A stretch of 63,774 nucleotides of DNA, filler included, from Globobulimina sp. (lineage: Eukaryota), in the NCBI GenBank assembly GCA_003354225.1. It is 46 parts of 46 records of this genome, joined end to end, with 100 filler letters (N's around TTAATTAATTAA, not from the genome) between each part and the next. Parts side by side here need not be neighbours in the genome. Positions count along the whole stretch, not along the records: positions 38,891 to 40,178 come from PIVH01019365.1; positions 40,279 to 41,566 come from PIVH01019366.1; positions 41,667 to 42,954 come from PIVH01019367.1; positions 43,055 to 44,342 come from PIVH01019368.1; positions 44,443 to 45,730 come from PIVH01019369.1; positions 45,831 to 47,118 come from PIVH01019370.1; positions 47,219 to 48,506 come from PIVH01019371.1; positions 48,607 to 49,894 come from PIVH01019372.1; 38 more parts are not named here. The stretch is one strand, 5' to 3'. The notes under the pieces are model-generated. The model saw only the letters and a program-made list of their open reading frames with translations, was not told the DNA's origin and searched no databases. A program made the position numbers and the translations under genes. Each line of letters opens with the position of its first letter. The stretch's first letter is position 1. Of the stretch, positions 38,791 through 51,382 are shown one piece after another.

Positions 38791-38972
38791 NNNNNNNNNN
38801 NNNNNNNNNNNNNNNNNNNNNNNNNNNNNNNNNNTTAATTAATTAANNNNNNNNNNNNNNNNNNNNNNNNNNNNNNNNNNNNNNNNNNNNTTCAAGCACG
38901 TAGACGAAAAAAACTACAGAAAACTAATTCGATTAGTGATTTTACTTTCAATTCACTTAAATGCACAAACTC

Positions 38973-39224
38973 TATATGAACCTTTCCATAAATAATCCGT
39001 CGTTTCGTGGCCTTTTGTGTATACCATAATTTCAAATAACATCGTATGGCCTGTAATGTTTTTAATTATATGATAACGTCATAATAATAATAAGTTATAG
39101 TTAACACATCTCTCTCTCTCTAAGTGCATGCCATATTTTGCATGATATTTTTGTATGTTATTTGAAATTATGGTATACACAAAAGGCCACGAAACGACGG
39201 ATTATTTATGGAAAGGTTCATATA
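38973..39224. mobile_element. MITE with perfect 70-bp TIRs
   Basis: 38973-39042 is the exact reverse complement of 39155-39224; TA at both ends. Confidence 0.9.
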
Positions 39225-39311
39225 CACCACTTCAACTTTTGGAGTTCTTCGCAGTTTGGGCGTAAAATTCTCAATTAGCTCATTCAACTCATTTCTGAAA
39301 ATTAAGGAAAA

Positions 39312-40178
39312 ATGAACAATGCTGTCAGGAAAAGACGATCGCAATTATTAGTAAGTGGATACGTTAGAAACTGTAGGACTCAGTACATCCATACAGATAT
39401 TATTAGTATCATTCATGCGTTCCATTATTTTATTTTATTGTTGCTATATTCTATCGGTAACAACAGATATGGACAGCAAGGAAACGGAGGAAACGAAGAT
39501 ATTGAAAAAATAACAAAAATAAAAGCATTTGATAAAAAAATAAAAAATATTGTTACTTGTGGTGGTTATGGTGGTGTAGCAGTATATATTTTATTTGATG
39601 ATGAAACATATGAATGTTGTGGTTGTAATAAATTGGGTGTATTAGGTGTTGGGCATTATAATAATATTAATATATGGCATCAAATGAAAGATATGAAAAT
39701 AAAAAATATATTTGCAACACCTCATTCACGGCATTCATTTTGTATTTCAAATGAGAATAAATTATATGCTGTCGGACGGAATTATCATAATCAATTTGGT
39801 ATAACAACAAATCAAGATACTAATAATAAATGGACACCAATTAATACAACATTATCGATTCAAAAAGTAGCCACAGCAGATGGGTATACAACATTTTTAA
39901 GCACAAATGGTAACATATATGTTGCTGGCACTGATTATGGTTATGGTGGTTTAGGATTAGGTGAATATATTAGATCATCACCAAATATTCAAGAAATTCA
40001 AATAAAAATAAAATTTAAGGATATATATTGTGGACGTGAACATACCTTAGCAATTGATGATAATTATGGTGTTTGGTCGTGGGGAGATGGTACAGAGGGC
40101 AGGTTAGGTCATGGAAATGATAATCATAGATATTCACCAACAAGAATACAATATTTTATTCAAAACAATATTAAAATT
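39312..40178 (+). CDS. RCC1-repeat protein with N-terminal LLVSGYVR module
   Basis: GNNRYGQQG, GRNYHNQFG and CGREHTLAI…VWSWGDGTEGRLGHG repeats. Confidence 0.92.
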
Positions 40179-40335
40179 NNNNNNNNNNNNNNNNNNNNNN
40201 NNNNNNNNNNNNNNNNNNNNNNTTAATTAATTAANNNNNNNNNNNNNNNNNNNNNNNNNNNNNNNNNNNNNNNNNNNNCAGGTTTTCTGAAATTATTCAC
40301 TTTCACCGAAAATTGCCAATGATTCAATTTATGAT

Positions 40336-40404
40336 TTGACAAACATCCATTTTTAAAGGATAAAATTGTTTGTACAGTAGAATATTATGAGTGATAAAAA
40401 GGAG
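40336..40404 (+). promoter_or_regulatory. Possible sigma70 promoter and RBS for the aspartokinase
   Basis: TTGACA at 40336, TAAAAT at 40361 (19-bp spacer, longer than ideal), AGGAG at 40400 before ATG 40415. Confidence 0.4.
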
Positions 40405-40414
40405 CAACACTGTG

Positions 40415-41566
40415 ATGAAAAATCCAAATTTACGTGTTGAAAAAATCGGCGGCACATCCATGTCTCGCTTTGGTGAGATCGTTGACAATATTATTCTCAG
40501 GGACAAAACCGATATTTTCAACAGGATCTATGTTGTGTCAGCCTATGGCGGTGTTACCAACGAGCTCCTTGAACACAAGAAAACCGGGCAGCCCGGAATT
40601 TACGAAAAATTTAAAAATCACAGTGATTATCAGACTGCTCTGCTGGGTCTAAAAGAAAAACTCTGCGATATGAATAAGGCGTTTGTTGATGCGGGGCTTG
40701 ATCTTGATGATGCCAACGAGTTCATCAACGAGCGAATTGACCAGGCTGTCAACGTCCTGAAAAGTATGTCTGCCGTTCTTGCATCAGGATATGTCAGCAG
40801 GCACGAGCTTCTTCTGGCTGCCCGCGAGTTGCTGGCTTCACTGGGCGAAATGCACAGCGCATATAATTCCGCCAATATTTTACAGAATCGCGGATACGAT
40901 TCCACATATATTGATTTGAGTGGATGGCAGGATGGCCGCGAGTTGATTATTGATGAACGTATCAAAGATGTGTTTGTCTCCATCGATCCGTCGAGTACAA
41001 TCTGCTTTGCAACAGGTTATGCAAAAGGGACGGAAGGGATCATGCGTGAATTTGATCGCGGTTATTCAGAAGTGACTTTTTCTAAGATAGCCGTATTGTT
41101 ACGGGCCAAAGAAGCTGTTATTCACAAAGAGTTTCATCTGAGTTCGGGTGACCCGGTCATCATGGGTGAAGAAAATATCAGCCCGGTATGCGATACAAAC
41201 TTTGATGTGGCTGATCAGCTTGCCGATGTGGGAATGGAGGCAATTCACCCGAAAGCATCCAAGCCTCTTGAGGTAAATGGAATCCCCATTCGTGTGAAGA
41301 ATGCTTTTGAACCGGAACACAAAGGTACACTGATCACAAAAGAGTATATCAGTCCTGAATCAAAGATTGAAATCGTGACAGGGTCCGATAAGGTTGTATG
41401 TCTGGAAATTCACGATACAAGAATGGTCGGTGAAGTCGGGTTTGACTTGAAGATAATGAAGATTTTGTCATGGCATAATGCTTCTTACATCAGCAAGATG
41501 ACAAATGCCAACACGATCGAAATGATTGTGTTTGAAGAAGACTGCGCGCCCGCTATGATGGAAGAT
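40415..41566 (+). CDS. ask: Bacterial aspartate kinase, ectoine-associated (Ask_Ect) type, partial
   Basis: VEKIGGTSMS, VVSAYGGVTNELLEHKKTG, FDRGYSE, HKEFHLSS.DP and GMEAIHP; no introns, RBS present. Confidence 0.9.
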
Positions 41567-41778
41567 NNNNNNNNNNNNNNNNNNNNNNNNNNNNNNNNNN
41601 NNNNNNNNNNTTAATTAATTAANNNNNNNNNNNNNNNNNNNNNNNNNNNNNNNNNNNNNNNNNNNNTTAATTTGCAATAAATAAATGAGCATTAATAAAT
41701 AAAGCAAATAAGAAAAAAAAGCAAGTTCGTTCTCCCCAGGAAATATTAGAAATTCAACAAATCTTTAAAATACTCAAT

Positions 41779-42831
41779 TTGAATCAAACTGAACATGATG
41801 ATTTCCATTATAATAATACGAAAAAGAAAAAAGAGGAAACACCAAAGAGATTACCGGTACCTCCTTGTTGCTTTGAAAGGAGTATAAAGAAAAATGAGAA
41901 AACGAAAATAATAACTTGTGGTATAAAGAAAAAATCTGACTTGGATGCAAACAGCAAACACGACTTAAAAAATGATATATGGTCTAATAACACAAAAATT
42001 GATTTATTAATGTTCGGATTTATTCGGAATTATTATACGCATATATTTCCATCAGATCTTTATCCGTTGATATTTTGGCACATTTTACAGCCACCCATAT
42101 TTATTGAGATTTTAATATCAGAAAAATTATCTGTAACCTTTGATCGTAATGGAGCAATAAAAAAATTTGAGGTTAGAGGAGATTTAGACATTTGTATATT
42201 GGATCCATCAGCAACACAATGTGTAATTGACACAAATATAGATCCAAATTCAAAACAATTTATTAAACCAAGATGGAGGGCACACCCAAGGCTGGATGCT
42301 GCTGAATGGAAAAACGGTATTTTATGTTTAAAAAGTAGAAAGAAAAAGTTTCGTGTTGGTAGGTCTCAGCAAACTACAATTGCAAAATGGAAGTTTCTGC
42401 TTAATGAGGATTCAAAGGTACCGATTGCTATTAAATTTTGGCCAAAACAGGAATCGGATGATATAATTAAAAATATTATTGTTAAGGTTGAATATCAATG
42501 TCATATACCAATGGAAAATGTAATTGTTACGTTTCCAAATCCAACAGATAAAGAACCAAACATTTTAAGTTGTGACAATGGTGATATTACGTTTCATGAT
42601 GATGAATTTCGTTGGGTTTTAAATCATTTGGATGGCGATGCTCAAGGATCGATGGAGTGTATAATACCTGGTGTTGAATTAGATGATTTGTGGCCAGTTT
42701 CAGTGCAGTTTGAAATGGAAAATATGTCTTACTCACAAATTCATATTAAGGGTATTCATCATATTGACAGCAAACACAAAATTGAACATGTTGTTAAAAA
42801 AAAATGTGTTTCTGAAATAGTGTATGATTGA
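41779..42831 (+). CDS. Coatomer delta-subunit mu-homology domain with non-native N-terminus
   Basis: ISEKLSVTFDRNG..KKFEVRGDL, HPRLD, VPIAIKFWP, GSMEC and WPVSVQF; no longin domain. Start codon uncertain. Confidence 0.75.
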   Translation: MNQTEHDDFHYNNTKKKKEETPKRLPVPPCCFERSIKKNEKTKIITCGIKKKSDLDANSKHDLKNDIWSNNTKIDLLMFGFIRNYYTHIFPSDLYPLIFWHILQPPIFIEILISEKLSVTFDRNGAIKKFEVRGDLDICILDPSATQCVIDTNIDPNSKQFIKPRWRAHPRLDAAEWKNGILCLKSRKKKFRVGRSQQTTIAKWKFLLNEDSKVPIAIKFWPKQESDDIIKNIIVKVEYQCHIPMENVIVTFPNPTDKEPNILSCDNGDITFHDDEFRWVLNHLDGDAQGSMECIIPGVELDDLWPVSVQFEMENMSYSQIHIKGIHHIDSKHKIEHVVKKKCVSEIVYD

Positions 42832-43442
42832 ACAGTGACGGAGTTTGAATGTTAGTTTTGTTTGTTCTTTCATGCCAGTACACTTCATGCGGCGCCATCT
42901 GTGATATTGGAAGGAGCCACTCAGTTGTCTGGCATTTGACGGCGCAACATTTTANNNNNNNNNNNNNNNNNNNNNNNNNNNNNNNNNNNNNNNNNNNNTT
43001 AATTAATTAANNNNNNNNNNNNNNNNNNNNNNNNNNNNNNNNNNNNNNNNNNNNTGAAATATCATTTAACGCCGCGCCACCTGTCGTACATAAGCGATAA
43101 TGGCCAATTTTGGCTGAGGTACGTTTTTTCTTTGATATATTACCATTGATCTCATTATTTAATTCATTTTGATCCTTCTGATATTCCATAAATTGATAAT
43201 AATCTAAGTTTTTAGGGGGAATTTAAGGGGGGATTATATTGTGTATATATTAACATTATAAAAATACTTAGAAAGTATTTTACGCACTTATTCAAAAACG
43301 GATATCTGAAAAAACGGATTACGCAAAAAGCAGATTACTGAAAATGCATACACTGCACACCGAAAACACCGTTTTTTTGCACTGACAATGCATGAAATAA
43401 ACAAAACATGCACACAAATAAAAGAGACAGAATGTACAGATT

Positions 43443-44342
43443 CTACATACTCTTCATGACAGAATTACGGATATCTTCATCCGTCACATGATTGCCACCA
43501 TATTTTTGCATCAAATCCGTGAAACAAATGGTGTCATCTTCATCGTCAATGCCAGGATGCATAAACGTGAGACCTTCTACTAAGGCCGACTTATTATTTG
43601 ATTCTAAATCATTATTAACTCTCTGTTGAATATTTTTGGCGTTATTCACCAAATCAATGTTAAATGCATCATTTTCTATATTGATGTTGCCATCGCGATC
43701 GATGGTACGACGATTACGTATATTCACTGCTAATTCACGTTGTTTATTGCGATTATTTAATTGATCCAACAACGAAGGTTTCGACCCTGTAAATCTATTT
43801 TTGCCCCTTGCATTATTACCGTTGTTGCTGACTTGTTGAAGATTATTGATCCACGAATTGCCATTATTCTCTTCCTCTTTACTTTCAACCTCTTTCTGTA
43901 CGTCTGCAGTGTTGGTGTTATTGTTGGAATTGGTGTTGTGTTGATTGTTGGTATTGGACCTCGGCAGCGTATCTAATATTTTCTGTTTATATAAATCGAA
44001 TTCTTCTGATTTGTTTAATGGCGACAATAAACGTTGAATTATTTCGGCCAAATTTGAGAAATCAGGCTTGAAGTTTGCGACTTTCTATGTTAATGACGTT
44101 TCCGTTAATCCAAAATAAATATACATCTTCGATTTCGGAGTATTTTTATACGTCACATTGGTCGCATCACTCACAAATTGATTGAATTGATTAATAATAT
44201 TATGCCACGAAATTCTCGCAAAATTACAAAATTCGTTGACTTGCTCTTTGTCAAAATTCGAAGGATTGCCACGAGCTGAAATTAATAGATTTTCAATCAC
44301 CTGCAACGACGCAAAATCTTGCCGTTGAAAGTAGTCAATAAG
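43443..44342 (-). CDS. Hypothetical protein, 3' part (intron near 44085-44125)
   Basis: Two same-strand ORFs separated by a GT…AG gap; Asn-rich. Confidence 0.55.
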
Positions 44343-44442
44343 NNNNNNNNNNNNNNNNNNNNNNNNNNNNNNNNNNNNNNNNNNNNTTAATTAATTAANN
44401 NNNNNNNNNNNNNNNNNNNNNNNNNNNNNNNNNNNNNNNNNN

Positions 44443-45500
44443 ATCTTTATTTGATCGCACATTGAAAGTAATTTGTTTTGCAGCTCCACTCGTTGATTGC
44501 TCTGCAGATTTTAGAATTGCGCCAACGACAATGGGCTATTTTTATTCTTATGGTCTTTCAACACAAATAATTTCCATTCGCTAATGGAACAGCAAAGTTT
44601 ACGTATTTCAAACAGCGGTTTTCGTAAATCTCTATTCAAAATAAATAAGTTCTCGTTCATGACATTATTACACAACTTAATCTTATGTCGTTTTATGCAT
44701 TTCTTCCATCTTCGAAAGGATTTCCAGATTCGGAAACGTTTAAAAAATGCGATGTTCATCATCGAGGTAAACAGATAATATTCGCGCTGCCATTGGTCCG
44801 AAGGGCTGAAGCCAACTCGGGTCATACCGTCCAATTTGTAAAAGTGGGTCAATCCTTTGGATGAAAGCGTGTAATAATTGTTTTTATTTATTAATTGCAG
44901 CGAAGGCACTATCTCTAGCTCGTAGGGACTGATCTCGTTCAAATATACAAATTGTGTGTCGGCCTCATTTCGTACGGCATCAAAAAAAGCAAAAGGTGAA
45001 CGTATATATTGTTGGTAGGATAACTGCGCCATTTGTTGACGAATAAAGTTTTTGGTCACAATTTTTTCGCGTTCTTTTTCGTTGCCTTTCTTCATTAAAT
45101 ATTTTGTATTGTATTTGGGGAAATAATTTGAATCGTTTTGCTTTTGTATCGCGGCATATCTTGCTCTCGTTTCTGCAGTGTCGAGGATGTTGTTACAATT
45201 TGTTGGATTGGCTTTTTCCGCAATTTCAGAAGTATGGAATTTGTGTGTTTGTTGAGATGAGAATATTTGCTTTTTGTTGTTGTTGTTATTTGTATTTTCG
45301 CCATTTGGGTTTGATTGTATTTCGGAATCTGCACAAAAATATGTTGGGACAGGTTTACCAGTTTTGTATATTAATCTATTTGTTGAATCTCGTTCAGTTA
45401 AAATGGATGAAGGTTTCTTCCTTCTTCTTTTCGATGTAACATTAGGTACTGCCGTTGTATTATGCCGAGACTCACGGTCGTCATTGTTAGATTGAGACAT
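44443..45500 (-). CDS. Inner-arm dynein heavy chain N-terminus (DNAH6-like)
   Basis: FVYL…PYELEIV…YYTLSSKGLTH…W.REY..F…FF..FR.WK.F..W…LFILN; in-frame TAA at 44511-44513. Confidence 0.8.
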
Positions 45501-45949
45501 TCTTAAAACTTGAACATTTTGAACTAAGTTTTTAAAAATACTTAAAATATAAAAAATATAAAAATAATTAATGCATATCAATCGGTTGAGATTACGCAAA
45601 GCGTCTAACAAATTCGAAACAACCTGGTAAGAACCGTTTCATGTTATGGAGTTGTCCATATCCAGTATTATCTATGTTGTTGACAGTGGGTCATCATCAT
45701 CGACATTGACAGCAGAATGTTGAATTATCANNNNNNNNNNNNNNNNNNNNNNNNNNNNNNNNNNNNNNNNNNNNTTAATTAATTAANNNNNNNNNNNNNN
45801 NNNNNNNNNNNNNNNNNNNNNNNNNNNNNNGGCCGCCACCGTGTTGCGCAGCGCTTGGGCGGCTCGGAGGGCCTGCTCGTGTTCCGCGGCGGGGACGTCA
45901 CCGAGGTCGGGTGCTGCGGCCTCGCCTAGCCGGTCAGCCGCTTTGGTCT

Positions 45950-46706
45950 GATGTTTCGACACAAGCTGTGATGCATACGCTTCAGGTTTATAATAAATAC
46001 TCAACGTGTCGGCCGCTGGTTCTTTTTCATCATCTTTTGTATCGTCTTTTGCTTCTTCTTCTTTACTCTCTGCCACTGCACCACCACTGGCTGCACTACC
46101 ACTGCCTAAATGTTTTTCTTTCAATAAATATAAATCTTTCTTCCAATATGGATCTTTTTTCACCATTTTCCAATACTGTGCGGCAGCTTTACTCCGTGCT
46201 TTTTTCTTACCATTGGCGAATTCATCAGATGTCGAGTTTTCAAATATGCTTTGCACTTCTTTGAAGTCATCGTTATTGGGAGAATCGCGGCTGTATTTGC
46301 CCGAAGCGCTGATTTCCTGGTTCATTGTGGCTTGCTTATCGTAGAAAAACTGCACTTGTTTCATAGCTTCTGCTCGTTCTGTGTATCGTTAGGTTGTTTA
46401 GGATGCATTCTCTGCAATATATTGATGTGTATTGTGTATATATATACCATTATCATCAGCCGATGCAAAATTATATGTTTTGCCTTTGTACTCAAACTGC
46501 CAGCAAGATTTCATAGTTTTACCTTCGCCGCTCGCCGTTTTTAAATCACCCCATTCTTCTTTGACTAAATGGATACTAATTCTTACTTTTTTCTTTTCGT
46601 AACATTCGAATATGCCATCACTGGTTATTCGGATCGTTCGCTGTTTGTATTTGTCTCGTTTACCGAATCCTTTATATTCTGCGTCTTTATCGTAGACGTA
46701 AGACAT
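45950..46706 (-). CDS. PH-domain protein, 5' part
   Basis: YKQRTIRIT…TYNFASADDN|ERAEAMKQV after splicing 46379-46447. Confidence 0.65.
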
Positions 46707-47036
46707 GGATGGTTAGATCTGTTTCGTTTTGTTTGTGGTGTTGAATAAATTAGTTTATAATAGAATTGTGGATGGTGTTAAACTCTTTCAGAAATGAGAA
46801 ACTGGGTCAAATTGGTTAGGTGTAGTGAAAATAGAAACAAAAAAACTTTCAGAACTCTGCTATATATTGGATTAGTGTGTGGATATCGGAGTTTTACCTA
46901 AAACAGCAAACTTCTTTTTTAAAAATCGACTAAAAAACATCCTCACAAGGCTCTGACACAATAAAACCGGTTCGTTTCCTCGTCAAACCTTCCAATTCGA
47001 ATCTAAATCAACATAAACATAATACCGACAGTCCAT

Positions 47037-47118
47037 ATGGCCGACGTTCAAGAATTTTTAGACTCCATTAAATTATCAAAATACTACGATGCATTGGTAG
47101 AAGGTGGTGCAGAAAGTA
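47037..47118 (+). CDS. SAM-domain protein N-terminus
   Basis: MADVQEFLDSIKLSKYYDALVEGG. Confidence 0.55.
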
Positions 47119-47218
47119 NNNNNNNNNNNNNNNNNNNNNNNNNNNNNNNNNNNNNNNNNNNNTTAATTAATTAANNNNNNNNNNNNNNNNNNNNNNNNNN
47201 NNNNNNNNNNNNNNNNNN

Positions 47219-48317
47219 GTTTGATATCCCTTTTTGTGCCATTAATTGACCGATGTAAACATCATTTATTTTCTCCATCGTTCCATCTGAACATATCCCC
47301 AATCTCCACAATTTATTTTCTTCTAAAATGTCATTATCAGAAAGAACAAATCCACCAATAAACAGTTTCAAAATTTCTGGTTTTATATCTCCTTTTTTTC
47401 CTTTTTTTCCTTTTTTCCCCTTTTTGATGATCTTATGCTCATATTTATGACCATACCTTTCCCAATGTTGCGCACGAACAATGCCGTATGCCAATCCCTT
47501 TTCCATACTTATCCATTGTTTTCTTCCTTTTTTCAATCCGTTGGTGTATACACGATAAGTGACGTTATCACTCTTCGATAAACAACATGTCATCAACGAA
47601 GTACCTTCCAATATAATATCTTTATGCAAACACTCAGCTTTACCACCACATTGCGCATCGTCAAATCGTATCATTATCGATGTTACAATTGTTGTCATTG
47701 GATCGAATTTGGACCTCAGGAGCTCAAAAGATAACAAAAACAATTCATCGTTGAACCGTTTGCCATTATCATCCATTTTTATACCCATATTGTTAACATG
47801 TGGAAATGATTTCATTTTTTCATACATTAAGGCACATTCAGGAGCTCCATCAAATAACGAATTGTTGATCAACACTATGTTTCTTCATTAAATCACCCAA
47901 AACACAGCCTTTTGCCACAAGTCTGGCATCTAATCCATACTGATGGTATGGGCTATACGTTGAGGGATATTTAGGAGGATCTCGGAGGCAAACAACTGTT
48001 TTTTGTGTTGTCTGTAGAGGTGAATTTTTATAACAGAAACAAACAAACATACTGGCAAAAAATGGAGATTGTTGTTGAACGTCGTATGAATATCTAGTCG
48101 TCTCTTTATAATTCTTTATGTCATCATCATCCTTTTCAACATAAGTCTTAATGTCATCATCATCTAATAGTTGAACCGGATGGATGTCCGCTTTGATATA
48201 ACACCTCGTGTGTCTTTTTGGACGACGATTATGACGACGACCACGTGACATTGTGATGTTTAAGTTTGGTTTTGAAAAACTGTTCTTACAATCATTTTCA
48301 AAAAACTTTACAATCAT
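47219..48317 (-). CDS. Hypothetical protein(s): two overlapping ORFs, possibly one frameshifted gene
   Basis: ORFs 47850-48317 and 47171-47875 overlap on the same strand. Confidence 0.4.
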
Positions 48318-48635
48318 CTACATTTAACGGTAAACAATCAGAATTGAATTAGGAAAACGCCAACATTATCAAAAAACACATAGATCATCGTAAACAATCA
48401 GTGGTTTTATTGTTAAGTGTTTGCATTGTTTGGATATTGCTGACATTATGGCATTGTGTTTGTAAATTGCTTCAAATAACAAATTTAAACAAATTTAAAC
48501 AAATTTNNNNNNNNNNNNNNNNNNNNNNNNNNNNNNNNNNNNNNNNNNNNTTAATTAATTAANNNNNNNNNNNNNNNNNNNNNNNNNNNNNNNNNNNNNN
48601 NNNNNNCTGATTGATTGACTCGAACATATGTGTAA

Positions 48636-49894
48636 TCACTTTATGACGCCAGAACACACCCCACACACCACACAAAAGAGCAGACAGAACACACACCTTT
48701 TCAACATTTCGCAATTTACAAATAAATGTTTTAAAATGCGCCGTCTAAATATCATCGATAAATGTATTAATCTCCGAAAAAGTGATAAAAACAGATTGTT
48801 ATAGTCATATTCAAAAACCATATTTAATAATTTCTCCCAAAATGCGAATTTCATCAAACTCAAAACTTGTCCACATTTATCTTGTGCGAAATCACTGGAA
48901 ACAACTAACAAACTTAAACAATTCAGGCGAATTTGACCAAATGGTTTCATTATCTCACCGCACGACAATTTGATTGAATTTATTTTAAAATTCGGATTGA
49001 TAATAACCTCACATATTTTTGGTATGAACGAGTGTGTTCTATTTAACATACCTTCAAACATTGAATGTAGCATATTTTCATTTGATGTCTGCTCTTCGTT
49101 TACTACATTGATATTTTCTCGACTTAAAATATCTAAAAATGTGATTAATATCTGCCCATAATATATTCTATTCTGATTATCGACATCCAACAAAGCATTC
49201 ATAAACGAGTCGATAATTAAATAATTATCGCTATACTCTTTGAATAATTCGCTACTTTCTGCATTTGCTGCACATCGAATGACTAAATCAATAAAAAAGT
49301 TGGCATATTTTGCTGCGACGTCACAATGTTTCTCATCGCACGAAACAAATAAAATATATTCCACAAATTTCCAATCGATTAACATTTTTATTAACTTCTT
49401 TATGGATGGAACAGAGATCAAATCTAAAATGAACGAATCCAGATTTCCTCGATGCACATTTCTAAACAATGCACATTTCAGTAAGGATTCAATGCGTTTT
49501 TCATTTATCAGTGTATTTACAAATTGTTTGGGGTCGTTATAAAATAACACCTCTAATACAACGCGACCGTGATATTTATTTCCCTTTGACAGCGGATGAA
49601 AGACCGCCAAACTATGTAGACATATTTGCGTACATTTCTTGGCTAAAAATGATTTTATAGTTTCCGCGTCATTTATATTCGATAATATTTTCATCAGCGC
49701 GTAACTTAATTGTGTCGCTCTTATTTCATCCACGTCGTCAGAGCCTAAATTATCTGCAGTATCCGGTATAACATCATCAAAATTAATGTCATGATTGTCA
49801 TATAACTTTGTTCCATGTGGCAATCTCGACAAATAACTCAATAATAGGGATGTTATATTATCCTCACTCAAAAACTCCACCATCTTCCACGTAA
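48636..49894 (-). CDS. SAPS (SIT4/PP6 regulatory subunit)-like protein, internal part
   Basis: MVEFL…LLSY, KPFGQIRL and W..LL..VFEY.YNNLF. Confidence 0.7.
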
Positions 49895-50065
49895 NNNNNN
49901 NNNNNNNNNNNNNNNNNNNNNNNNNNNNNNNNNNNNNNTTAATTAATTAANNNNNNNNNNNNNNNNNNNNNNNNNNNNNNNNNNNNNNNNNNNNATTCAT
50001 CATTTCGTGTTAAATGTTGAAAGAGATATTGTATTTTACCCAACTGCAGTGAATCATTGTTTGAT

Positions 50066-51009
50066 ATGGACTTTACTGGCAGGAAAAGACGGTCCCGCTT
50101 ATTAGTAAGTGGATATGTTAGAAAATGTAGGTCTCAATACACCCACACAGATATTATTAGTATCATTCAAGCATTCCATGGCCAGTCAGTATCATTCATC
50201 CATTCCACGGCATATGATCATTTATTTAGGTTTACGCTTATTGGAGATTCAGGTCAATTTAATGCAATTAAAAAATGCAGATACATACGGTCACTGTGAT
50301 AGCTGACAGCTCACTGAAATAAGCTGATCAATCCAGGTCATACTCAACTGACTGATTTCATTCTGATCGGTCAGACTCATTTTCTGATCGACTGAAATTC
50401 CTCAGCTGACCATCAACAATGACCGTACGTGTCTGCAATACATAAATGTACAATATAGGCGTAGGGAAAACCTGTCTAATGACGCGTTATGCCGATGATA
50501 AGTATACGGAATCACTATTTTTAACGGTTGGCGTGGATTTTCGCTTTCGTACAATTAATGTGGATGATCAAATTGTAAAATTGCAAATATGGGATACCGC
50601 GGGAATTCGTAGATTTAGGACAATTACATCATGTTATTATAGAATTGCGGATGCGGTGATGATTGTGTTTGATGTCTCTGATCGAGTATCATTTAATAAT
50701 ATCGATGAATGGTTATCTGATCTGGAGATATTTGGTCCAAAAGAAGTCTGTAAGATGATAATAGGAAATAAATGTGATATTCCATTATCAGACAGAGAAG
50801 TTACAGCACGACACGCTGGCCAATATGCACAAAATATGAAAATACCATACATTGAAACGTCTGCAAAAACTGCTGACAATGTTGGAATGGCATTCTATAG
50901 AATGGTACAGCAATTAATTAAAAAAAAATTAAAAAATACCATAGATGTTCTTCATTTAAATACTATACGGCAAAATAGTAAGGCTTCCTGTTCATGTATA
51001 ATCATATAA
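50066..51009 (+). CDS. Rab1-like GTPase with N-terminal LLVSGYVR module
   Basis: Intron 50253-50458 joins YDHLFRFTLIGDS|GVGKT. Also TVGVDF, WDTAGIR, YYR, NKCD, ETSAK and C-terminal CSCIII. Confidence 0.92.
50277..50436. mobile_element. MITE inside the Rab intron
   Basis: Imperfect TIRs GCAGATACATACGGTCACTGT / ACAATGACCGTACGTGTCTGC, flanked by AAT on both sides. Confidence 0.7.
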
Positions 51010-51382
51010 ATACGTTTTTTTTTGTGTTTGTTACGACTGAGTGAAGTGTGTTTGTTATGACTGAGTGCAAGAATATGAACCAAGCTGAAAACCTTGTTCA
51101 ATTTGTATTTAGTCTGTTTGCTAATTTTAAGCGCCATATAGAAATTTCAGCGCCATATATGGCAAGAAATTTCGGAGCCATCCAATATATCTAAAACAAG
51201 CTTGTATGTACAACTGAAACAATATACTGTTGTATGTACAAGTCTACAAATACTGTTTCCATTTGACCCTGTATTGTTTCTGNNNNNNNNNNNNNNNNNN
51301 NNNNNNNNNNNNNNNNNNNNNNNNNNTTAATTAATTAANNNNNNNNNNNNNNNNNNNNNNNNNNNNNNNNNNNNNNNNNNNN

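Follow-up and report, generated by a model that had tools for sequence, protein, structure and literature searches.

Our results suggest that foraminifera carry an undescribed, portable mini-domain of ~35 residues (hereafter, the tag), absent from Pfam and from the sequences of the PDB, which may bring the unrelated domains fused to it to a shared partner or to other proteins that bear it. The tag is described here from a 63,774-nt stretch of DNA of the foraminifer Globobulimina sp. (assembly GCA_003354225.1; hereafter, the window), which consists of 46 contigs of 1288-1290 nt each, with spacers of N and TTAATTAATTAA between them, and in which three copies stand ahead of an RCC1-like beta-propeller, a Rab1-like GTPase and a delta-COP-type mu-homology domain, respectively. 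In the aligned instances, the tag consists of a basic patch, the block LLxxG[YF]IR, a loop of 6-11 residues and the block IPxDIxxIIxxF[CH]G, and in each half the hydrophobic residues are spaced as would suit an amphipathic helix. Short, promiscuous helical interaction modules are an already known kind of element, of which the tag would be a fresh instance.

Two of the three copies share 99 nt. Copy 1 (39327..39425, plus strand; residues 6-38) belongs to an RCC1-repeat gene (P0001; 39312..40178, plus strand) whose ATG-initiated open reading frame (ORF) is partial, leaving contig 38891-40178 at its end, and which continues beyond the tag with RCC1-like beta-propeller blades (residues 46-280; 39447..40151, plus strand; Pfam PF00415, E 8.7e-24, in four stretches, and PF25390, E 1.8e-38). 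The beta-propeller of a Bolivina RCC1 homologue is modelled confidently by AlphaFold2 (AF2). Among named organisms, the nearest relatives of the RCC1-like protein are found in Globobulimina turgida, at 82% identity with 57% of the query covered, and in Bolivina argentea, at 49%, which places the organism with the rotaliid foraminifera, near Globobulimina. Copy 2 (50081..50179, plus strand; residues 6-38 of P0002) lies on contig 49995-51282 in exon 1 of a Rab1-like gene (50066..50252, plus strand), which encodes the start codon, the tag, a 15-residue linker, the first Rab strand and the first half of the P-loop. A GT..AG intron of 206 nt (50253..50458, plus strand) then interrupts the P-loop 73 nt 3' of the tag, and exon 2 (P0004; 50459..51009, plus strand) runs to the stop codon. 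P0002 alone matches no Pfam family at E<=1. Exon 2 is of Rab1 type (PF00071, E 4.8e-49), with the top 21 PDB sequences all being Rab-1A/1B (2.7e-50 to 1.4e-46). The two copies differ at 12 of 99 nucleotides and 5 of 33 residues (i.e., they match at 87/99 nt and 28/33 aa) and both begin at residue 6 of ATG-initiated ORFs, whereas the 60 nt flanking them match only at background level (24/60 upstream and 16/60 downstream); no intron is present at either the tag/RCC1 or the tag/Rab junction. These values, recomputed here, are the same as those of a preliminary description of this DNA, whose account of an abrupt end of similarity where the partner domains begin, and whose assignment of these domains to RCC1 and Rab1, thus stand.

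The copies can also be recovered without using the window itself. A hidden Markov model (HMM) built from seven tag instances of other organisms and run on the 1329 six-frame pieces of the window ranked the three copies as its top three matches (E 1.3e-6 for copy 1, 2e-4 for copy 2 and 2.7e-3 for copy 3), the next best being at E 0.072. Copy 3 (41989..42096, plus strand; residues 71-106 of ORF P0003; E 0.0027) is diverged, being ~20% identical to the other two, and is located directly 5' of a mu-homology domain (residues 109-346; 42103..42831, plus strand; PF00928, E 9.3e-19) that ends at the stop codon. This domain is that of the C-terminus of coatomer delta, since all four of its PDB matches are to coatomer delta, the best (2.1e-15) covering residues 267-494 of the latter. 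Coatomer delta has an N-terminal longin domain, for which there is no counterpart in P0003: no other Pfam family was found within the 350-residue ORF, although an upstream exon is possible, and the 108 residues preceding the mu-homology domain are lysine-rich sequence plus the tag. The lysine-rich part comprises ~100 residues (41689-41988), the frame opening 22 nt into the contig, and no in-frame ATG occurs upstream of the tag on that contig. The true start of this delta-COP-like gene is probably in an upstream exon that lies off contig 41667-42954. The diverged copy had been noted in the preliminary description and is upheld by the independent model; in contrast, a half-motif noted at ~57496 is a chance match (1.5-3 bits, E 5.4, and outside the top eight matches of the HMM).

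To assess the reality of the fusions, the Rab contig was compared with the contigs of four public runs, which belong to three studies. Every run has one contig that covers the tag, extends across the junction at 50179/50180 by more than 31 nt in both directions and passes from exon 1 into exon 2 with precisely the 206-nt intron missing, as in cDNA. These contigs are transcript-like, as judged from the clean GT..AG skip alone, the kinds of library not being on record. Because spliced, junction-bridging contigs of this sort, which the preliminary description had proposed to look for, occur in all four runs, the tag-Rab fusion is not an artefact of assembly. Further, one run contains a tag-Rab variant that shows 29 differences over 486 nt, and therefore the fusion is also present in a diverged allele, a paralogue or a sister species. 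The tag-RCC1 junction, for its part, recurs in three further paralogue contigs (P0005/L002, P0015 and P0023) as well as in Bolivina transcripts. In one run (X4), up to seven contigs overlap the tag at >=90% identity; those that depart from the Rab sequence after 50179 continue in an RCC1-paralogue-like manner, except for one that continues differently, and the summed contig depth is 1146 in the tag region vs. 71.6 for the rest of the gene.

The tag is under purifying selection. Copies 1 and 2 are separated by ~6.5 synonymous and ~5.5 non-synonymous changes (dS 0.40, dN 0.074), in line with the earlier remark that half of the differences are synonymous and that the coding sequence is constrained, and the ratio of non-synonymous to synonymous rates (dN/dS) lies at 0.17-0.18 for each of the three pairs of tags, with the reading frame kept in all copies. 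Specifically, the tag of the Rab1-like gene shows dS of 0.40-0.50 and dN of 0.074-0.088 against the two RCC1 tags (dN/dS 0.18 vs. either), while the two RCC1 paralogues, i.e., P0001 and its 80%-identical relative P0005/L002, show dS of 0.23 and dN of 0.039 within the tag vs. 0.167 and 0.111, respectively, over the remaining 246 codons of the protein. L002 is a contig of 1171 nt and was the sole find of a metagenome scan based on P0002; the database protein P0005 reads through an unspliced intron that is visible in it. Outside the tag (L002 vs. 39447-40177), 61 non-synonymous and 22 synonymous changes give dN/dS of 0.67, as would be expected if selection on the RCC1-like propeller were relaxed or diversifying. 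No other part of this fast-evolving, multi-copy family is as well conserved between the two paralogues as the tag.

The Rab1-like protein departs from its relatives as well. The Gln of switch II is catalytic in Rab/Ras GTPases and is followed by Glu; in an alignment to solved Rabs, this catalytic Gln was not found in the Rab1-like protein, whose switch II reads DTAGI (50554-50600), with Ile and then Arg at the Gln and Glu positions. Because both residues are replaced, the protein may represent a hydrolysis-deficient paralogue. Its C-terminus, CSCIII (50990-51009), differs from the di-cysteine with which a typical Rab ends. Hence, the partners of the tag are atypical paralogues (an RCC1-like propeller with dN/dS of 0.67, a Rab with Ile for Gln, and a mu-homology domain that is not accompanied by a longin domain) rather than the housekeeping domains they had been taken for.

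The fusions also differ in age. RCC1 plus tag is an old architecture, not the recent fusion originally proposed, because the Bolivina RCC1 homologues carry a diverged N-terminal tag as well; an HMM built without the Bolivina RCC1 N-termini still detects four of four of them, at 19-22 bits. The Rab1-like gene, on the other hand, would have gained its tag later and within the genome, the donor being a member of the RCC1 paralogue family or something closely related to it. The transfer or conversion would have been in frame, with a tract that ended at the borders of the tag, and would somewhat predate the split of the sampled RCC1 paralogues. A direction of transfer from the RCC1 family to the Rab gene is the simplest reading of these comparisons. 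Given that the delta-COP copy of the same genome is only ~20% identical to the others, there is no genome-wide homogenization of tags.

To examine how widely the tag is distributed, 1.84e9 representative proteins were screened with a profile built from seven N-termini, yielding eight matches at E<=0.001. Three of these are RCC1 proteins (two from Bolivina and one from NCBI), one is a 1608-aa protein with FKBP domains and five copies of the tag (P0016), one is a Nonionella stella/Bolivina protein in which two copies flank an FN3 domain, two lack any Pfam domain (one of them with two copies), and one is encoded by a metagenome-assembled genome (MAG) of the Rickettsiaceae (P0020). Overall, the tag occurs once to five times per protein (five times in P0016, and twice in P0017 and in P0018/P0021), and its position varies from N-terminal to internal or C-terminal with respect to unrelated globular domains, including tandem arrays. 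In P0016, a unit of ~330 residues, composed of a proline-rich linker, the tag and a domain of ~250 residues that matches nothing in Pfam, is repeated four times and is followed by two FKBP domains, the last of which is again preceded by a tag. A basic cluster precedes the first helix in most copies but shows no conservation among the RCC1 copies of Bolivina. A word-indexed profile search returned nine rows at E<=10, of which P0022 (1366 aa, JGI) was dropped as a false positive, as it is made of many SGYLRN...DISGGNI units and matches the tag over only 9-11 residues; because these units look like the opening third of the tag, a census that relied on helix 1 and nothing else would be misled by them. 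The same type of search with the tag of Rab exon 1 gave no candidates, and searches of the ESM Atlas with the tag gave no usable matches (best score 0.77). Collectively, the constraint, the transcript-like contigs, the many partners and the occurrence in several foraminifera agree with the original idea of a translated, lineage-restricted, portable module on unrelated domains.

The bacterial match was pursued within its own genome. P0020 is encoded on a 3042-nt contig between genes for intracellular septation protein A (IspA) and a major facilitator superfamily (MFS) transporter. Searching the Rickettsiaceae MAG (G001; 1.8 Mb) with the tag profile revealed two further, independent matches (E 1.2e-4 and 3.0e-4; three in all at E<=3e-4), one close to the C-terminal end of an ORFan of 453 residues whose neighbor is the Hda gene and the other in an open frame of 149 residues beside recO, as well as a fourth locus with a strong match to the second half only (IIPNDII..FCG, E 0.017); these loci are designated L001/L003, L004, L005 and L006. 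Among 40 relatives of G001, there was one match at E<=0.01 (G030, E 0.0024), which we read as chance given its location in a 61% GC locus and its poor fit to the second helix. Among 400 other genomes of the order, 399 had no match at E<=0.001, and the sole match (G086, E 4.9e-4) covers model positions 11-29 only, with ~0.4 such matches expected by chance. Based on the three tag-bearing ORFans of G001, their bacterial gene neighbors and the near-absence of the tag from the rest of the order, it appears that one bacterium of intracellular type has acquired the eukaryotic tag on at least three otherwise unrecognizable proteins. These may be effector-like proteins that copy a host-interaction module, and thus an indirect echo of the link to pathogens drawn in the preliminary description. 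Rickettsiales are known as associates of foraminifera; for example, PMC10847448 mentions a Midichloriaceae symbiont of Reticulomyxa.

Comparison with known folds and families did not place the tag in any of them. At E<=10, the eight tag sequences that were compared with Pfam have a single match, at 0.23, which is unrelated; there is thus no match to the F-box (PF00646 / PF12937), the SOCS box (PF07525; BC box plus Cul box) or LisH (PF08513); a profile search of PDB sequences also gave no match at E<=10. Modelled alone by AF2 (42 residues, 10-sequence alignment), the tag is predicted to form two helices (3-20 and 28-40) with a mean predicted local distance difference test (pLDDT) value of 79.8. 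Foldseek with this model returned no match at E<=0.001 (best E 5.5), and a wide VIA-align search returned eight chains at Z>=5, all of them tied, generic helical hairpins and none of them an F-box, SOCS box or LisH. A prediction of a two-copy complex, made without an alignment and without controls, scored 0.02 vs. a mark of 0.32, a value that speaks neither for nor against self-pairing. In the literature on foraminifera and Reticulomyxa filosa we found no description of the tag, supplements and the R. filosa genome paper not being covered.

What might the tag be for? We favor, as reasonably probable, the hypothesis that it is a docking tag, by which any attached domain would be brought to a single cellular partner shared by all carriers, or to other carriers of the tag. 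It is important to note that several observations weigh against this hypothesis. The census is thin, with the eight significant matches in 1.84e9 proteins and nine by word index, one of them false; further, all database partners of the close subfamily are RCC1 (P0005, P0015 and P0023), and therefore the Rab fusion has so far been seen only in the organism of the window and its near relatives. The taxonomic range is uncertain, since the source taxa of P0016, P0017 and P0019 are not recorded. The estimates of dS and dN are rough, resting on ~21 synonymous sites. Finally, the same two helices reach a pLDDT of only 42-54 in the full-length model of the Bolivina RCC1 protein, so that the two-helix fold is only a prediction, and the near-invariant Gly within the first helix is unusual for a helix and would also suit a strand or turn.

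A bolder version of the docking hypothesis would make the tag the docking element of a foraminifer-specific hub (a ligase, or a scaffold for transport or sorting) into which dozens to thousands of domains are plugged as receptors or decoys, with the Rickettsiaceae bacterium copying the tag onto at least three effectors. The GTPase-dead Rab1 paralogue, the stand-alone cargo-binding domain of delta-COP and the fast-evolving RCC1 propellers would all be such plug-ins. We regard this extended scenario as rather unlikely.

Alternatively, the tag might associate with itself and cluster the domains fused to it, much as LisH, which mediates dimerization and is likewise a helix-turn-helix of ~33 residues found on many unrelated proteins. 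The predicted two-helix hairpin with conserved hydrophobic faces, the two to five copies in P0016, P0017 and P0018/P0021, and the low confidence of the tag as a monomer inside the full-length model are all consistent with self-association. However, the tag has a consensus other than that of LisH and, as mentioned above, no Pfam match to it, and many carriers have a single copy; self-pairing is a rival reading only, and in our view an unlikely one.

We also find it improbable, on balance, that the tag is an adaptor like the F-box or SOCS box, using Skp1 or Elongin C to link its carriers, as substrate receptors, to a cullin-RING ubiquitin ligase, which was the function originally proposed for it. 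The F-box is the Skp1-binding adaptor motif of SCF ligases and the SOCS box (or BC box) binds Elongin C. Like the F-box, the tag is short, predicted to be helical, modular and located beside variable domains, and its second helix, which opens with Pro followed by an acidic residue and spaced Ile/Leu, loosely recalls the F-box start, i.e., a Pro-initiated amphipathic helix with spaced aliphatic residues. It is also present three times in the Rickettsiaceae MAG, and intracellular bacteria mimic ligase adaptors and copy the F-box. Nevertheless, there is no positive evidence for this function: the Pfam and PDB searches were negative, as described above, and the folds retrieved were generic hairpins. 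Further, the F-box has three helices in ~45-50 residues as opposed to two predicted ones in ~35 for the tag; the most conserved block of the tag, LLxxG[YF]IR, precedes the Pro helix, where F-boxes are not conserved; and the tag can also be internal, C-terminal or in tandem. The likeness to the SOCS box lies in the layout (~40 residues, helical, a small residue in the middle of the first helix, a loop, and a second element containing Pro), but the conserved residues differ, and the SOCS box is C-terminal whereas the tag is mostly N-terminal to its domains. The bacterial copies are reminiscent of the eukaryote-like motifs (F-box, U-box, ankyrin) of Legionella and Rickettsiales effectors, in that a single Rickettsiaceae MAG has three ORFans bearing an otherwise eukaryotic tag beside ordinary bacterial genes; those motifs, however, are recognized eukaryotic domains, while the tag is not.

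It is quite improbable that the tag is instead a targeting signal, with its basic patch (RKRRS) serving in nuclear import or as a kinase site, or with an amphipathic helix binding membranes or microtubules. The basic cluster ahead of helix 1 would suit such a role, and Rab, COPI and RCC1 partners act at membranes or chromatin; however, the lack of conservation of this patch in the Bolivina RCC1 copies, the internal, C-terminal and tandem placements, which are unusual for a sorting signal, and a conserved hydrophobic core that resembles, in the model, a folded unit all speak against it. Lastly, despite an extremely fragmented assembly and the repeat-like depth over the tag in run X4, it is hardly credible that the feature stems from chimeric assembly or from a dispersed, untranslated repeat that is in frame by chance, the latter named in the preliminary description as an outcome that would undo its proposal, given the spliced junction in all four runs, the frame kept in all copies with dN/dS of ~0.18, and the protein-level conservation of the motif across genera.

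Foraminifera are ecologically important, but hardly any of their lineage-specific molecular cell biology is understood. If the docking hypothesis is true, the presence of the tag on trafficking, Ran-pathway, prolyl-isomerase and adhesion-type domains marks an unrecognized interaction network, for whose hub a single 35-residue bait would provide a simple handle. The bacterial copies would further suggest a symbiont or parasite that exploits this network, and could help to assign an orphan Rickettsiaceae genome to a group of hosts. Should the tag prove, on the other hand, to be only a leader of the RCC1 family plus one stray transfer to a Rab gene, it would be a small curiosity.

Two additional observations concern other parts of the window. 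Within the intron of the Rab1-like gene, a stretch of ~60 nt (50329-50389) is a small dispersed repeat: three runs have other contigs that contain it, at 93-95% identity, between flanks that differ. Most contigs of the window are AT-rich (27-40% GC), while contig 40279-41566 has 43% GC and encodes an ORF of the amino-acid (aspartate) kinase family (PF00696, E 6.7e-17) with a Shine-Dalgarno-like AGGAG upstream; this contig is probably DNA of an associated bacterium, not of the foraminifer.

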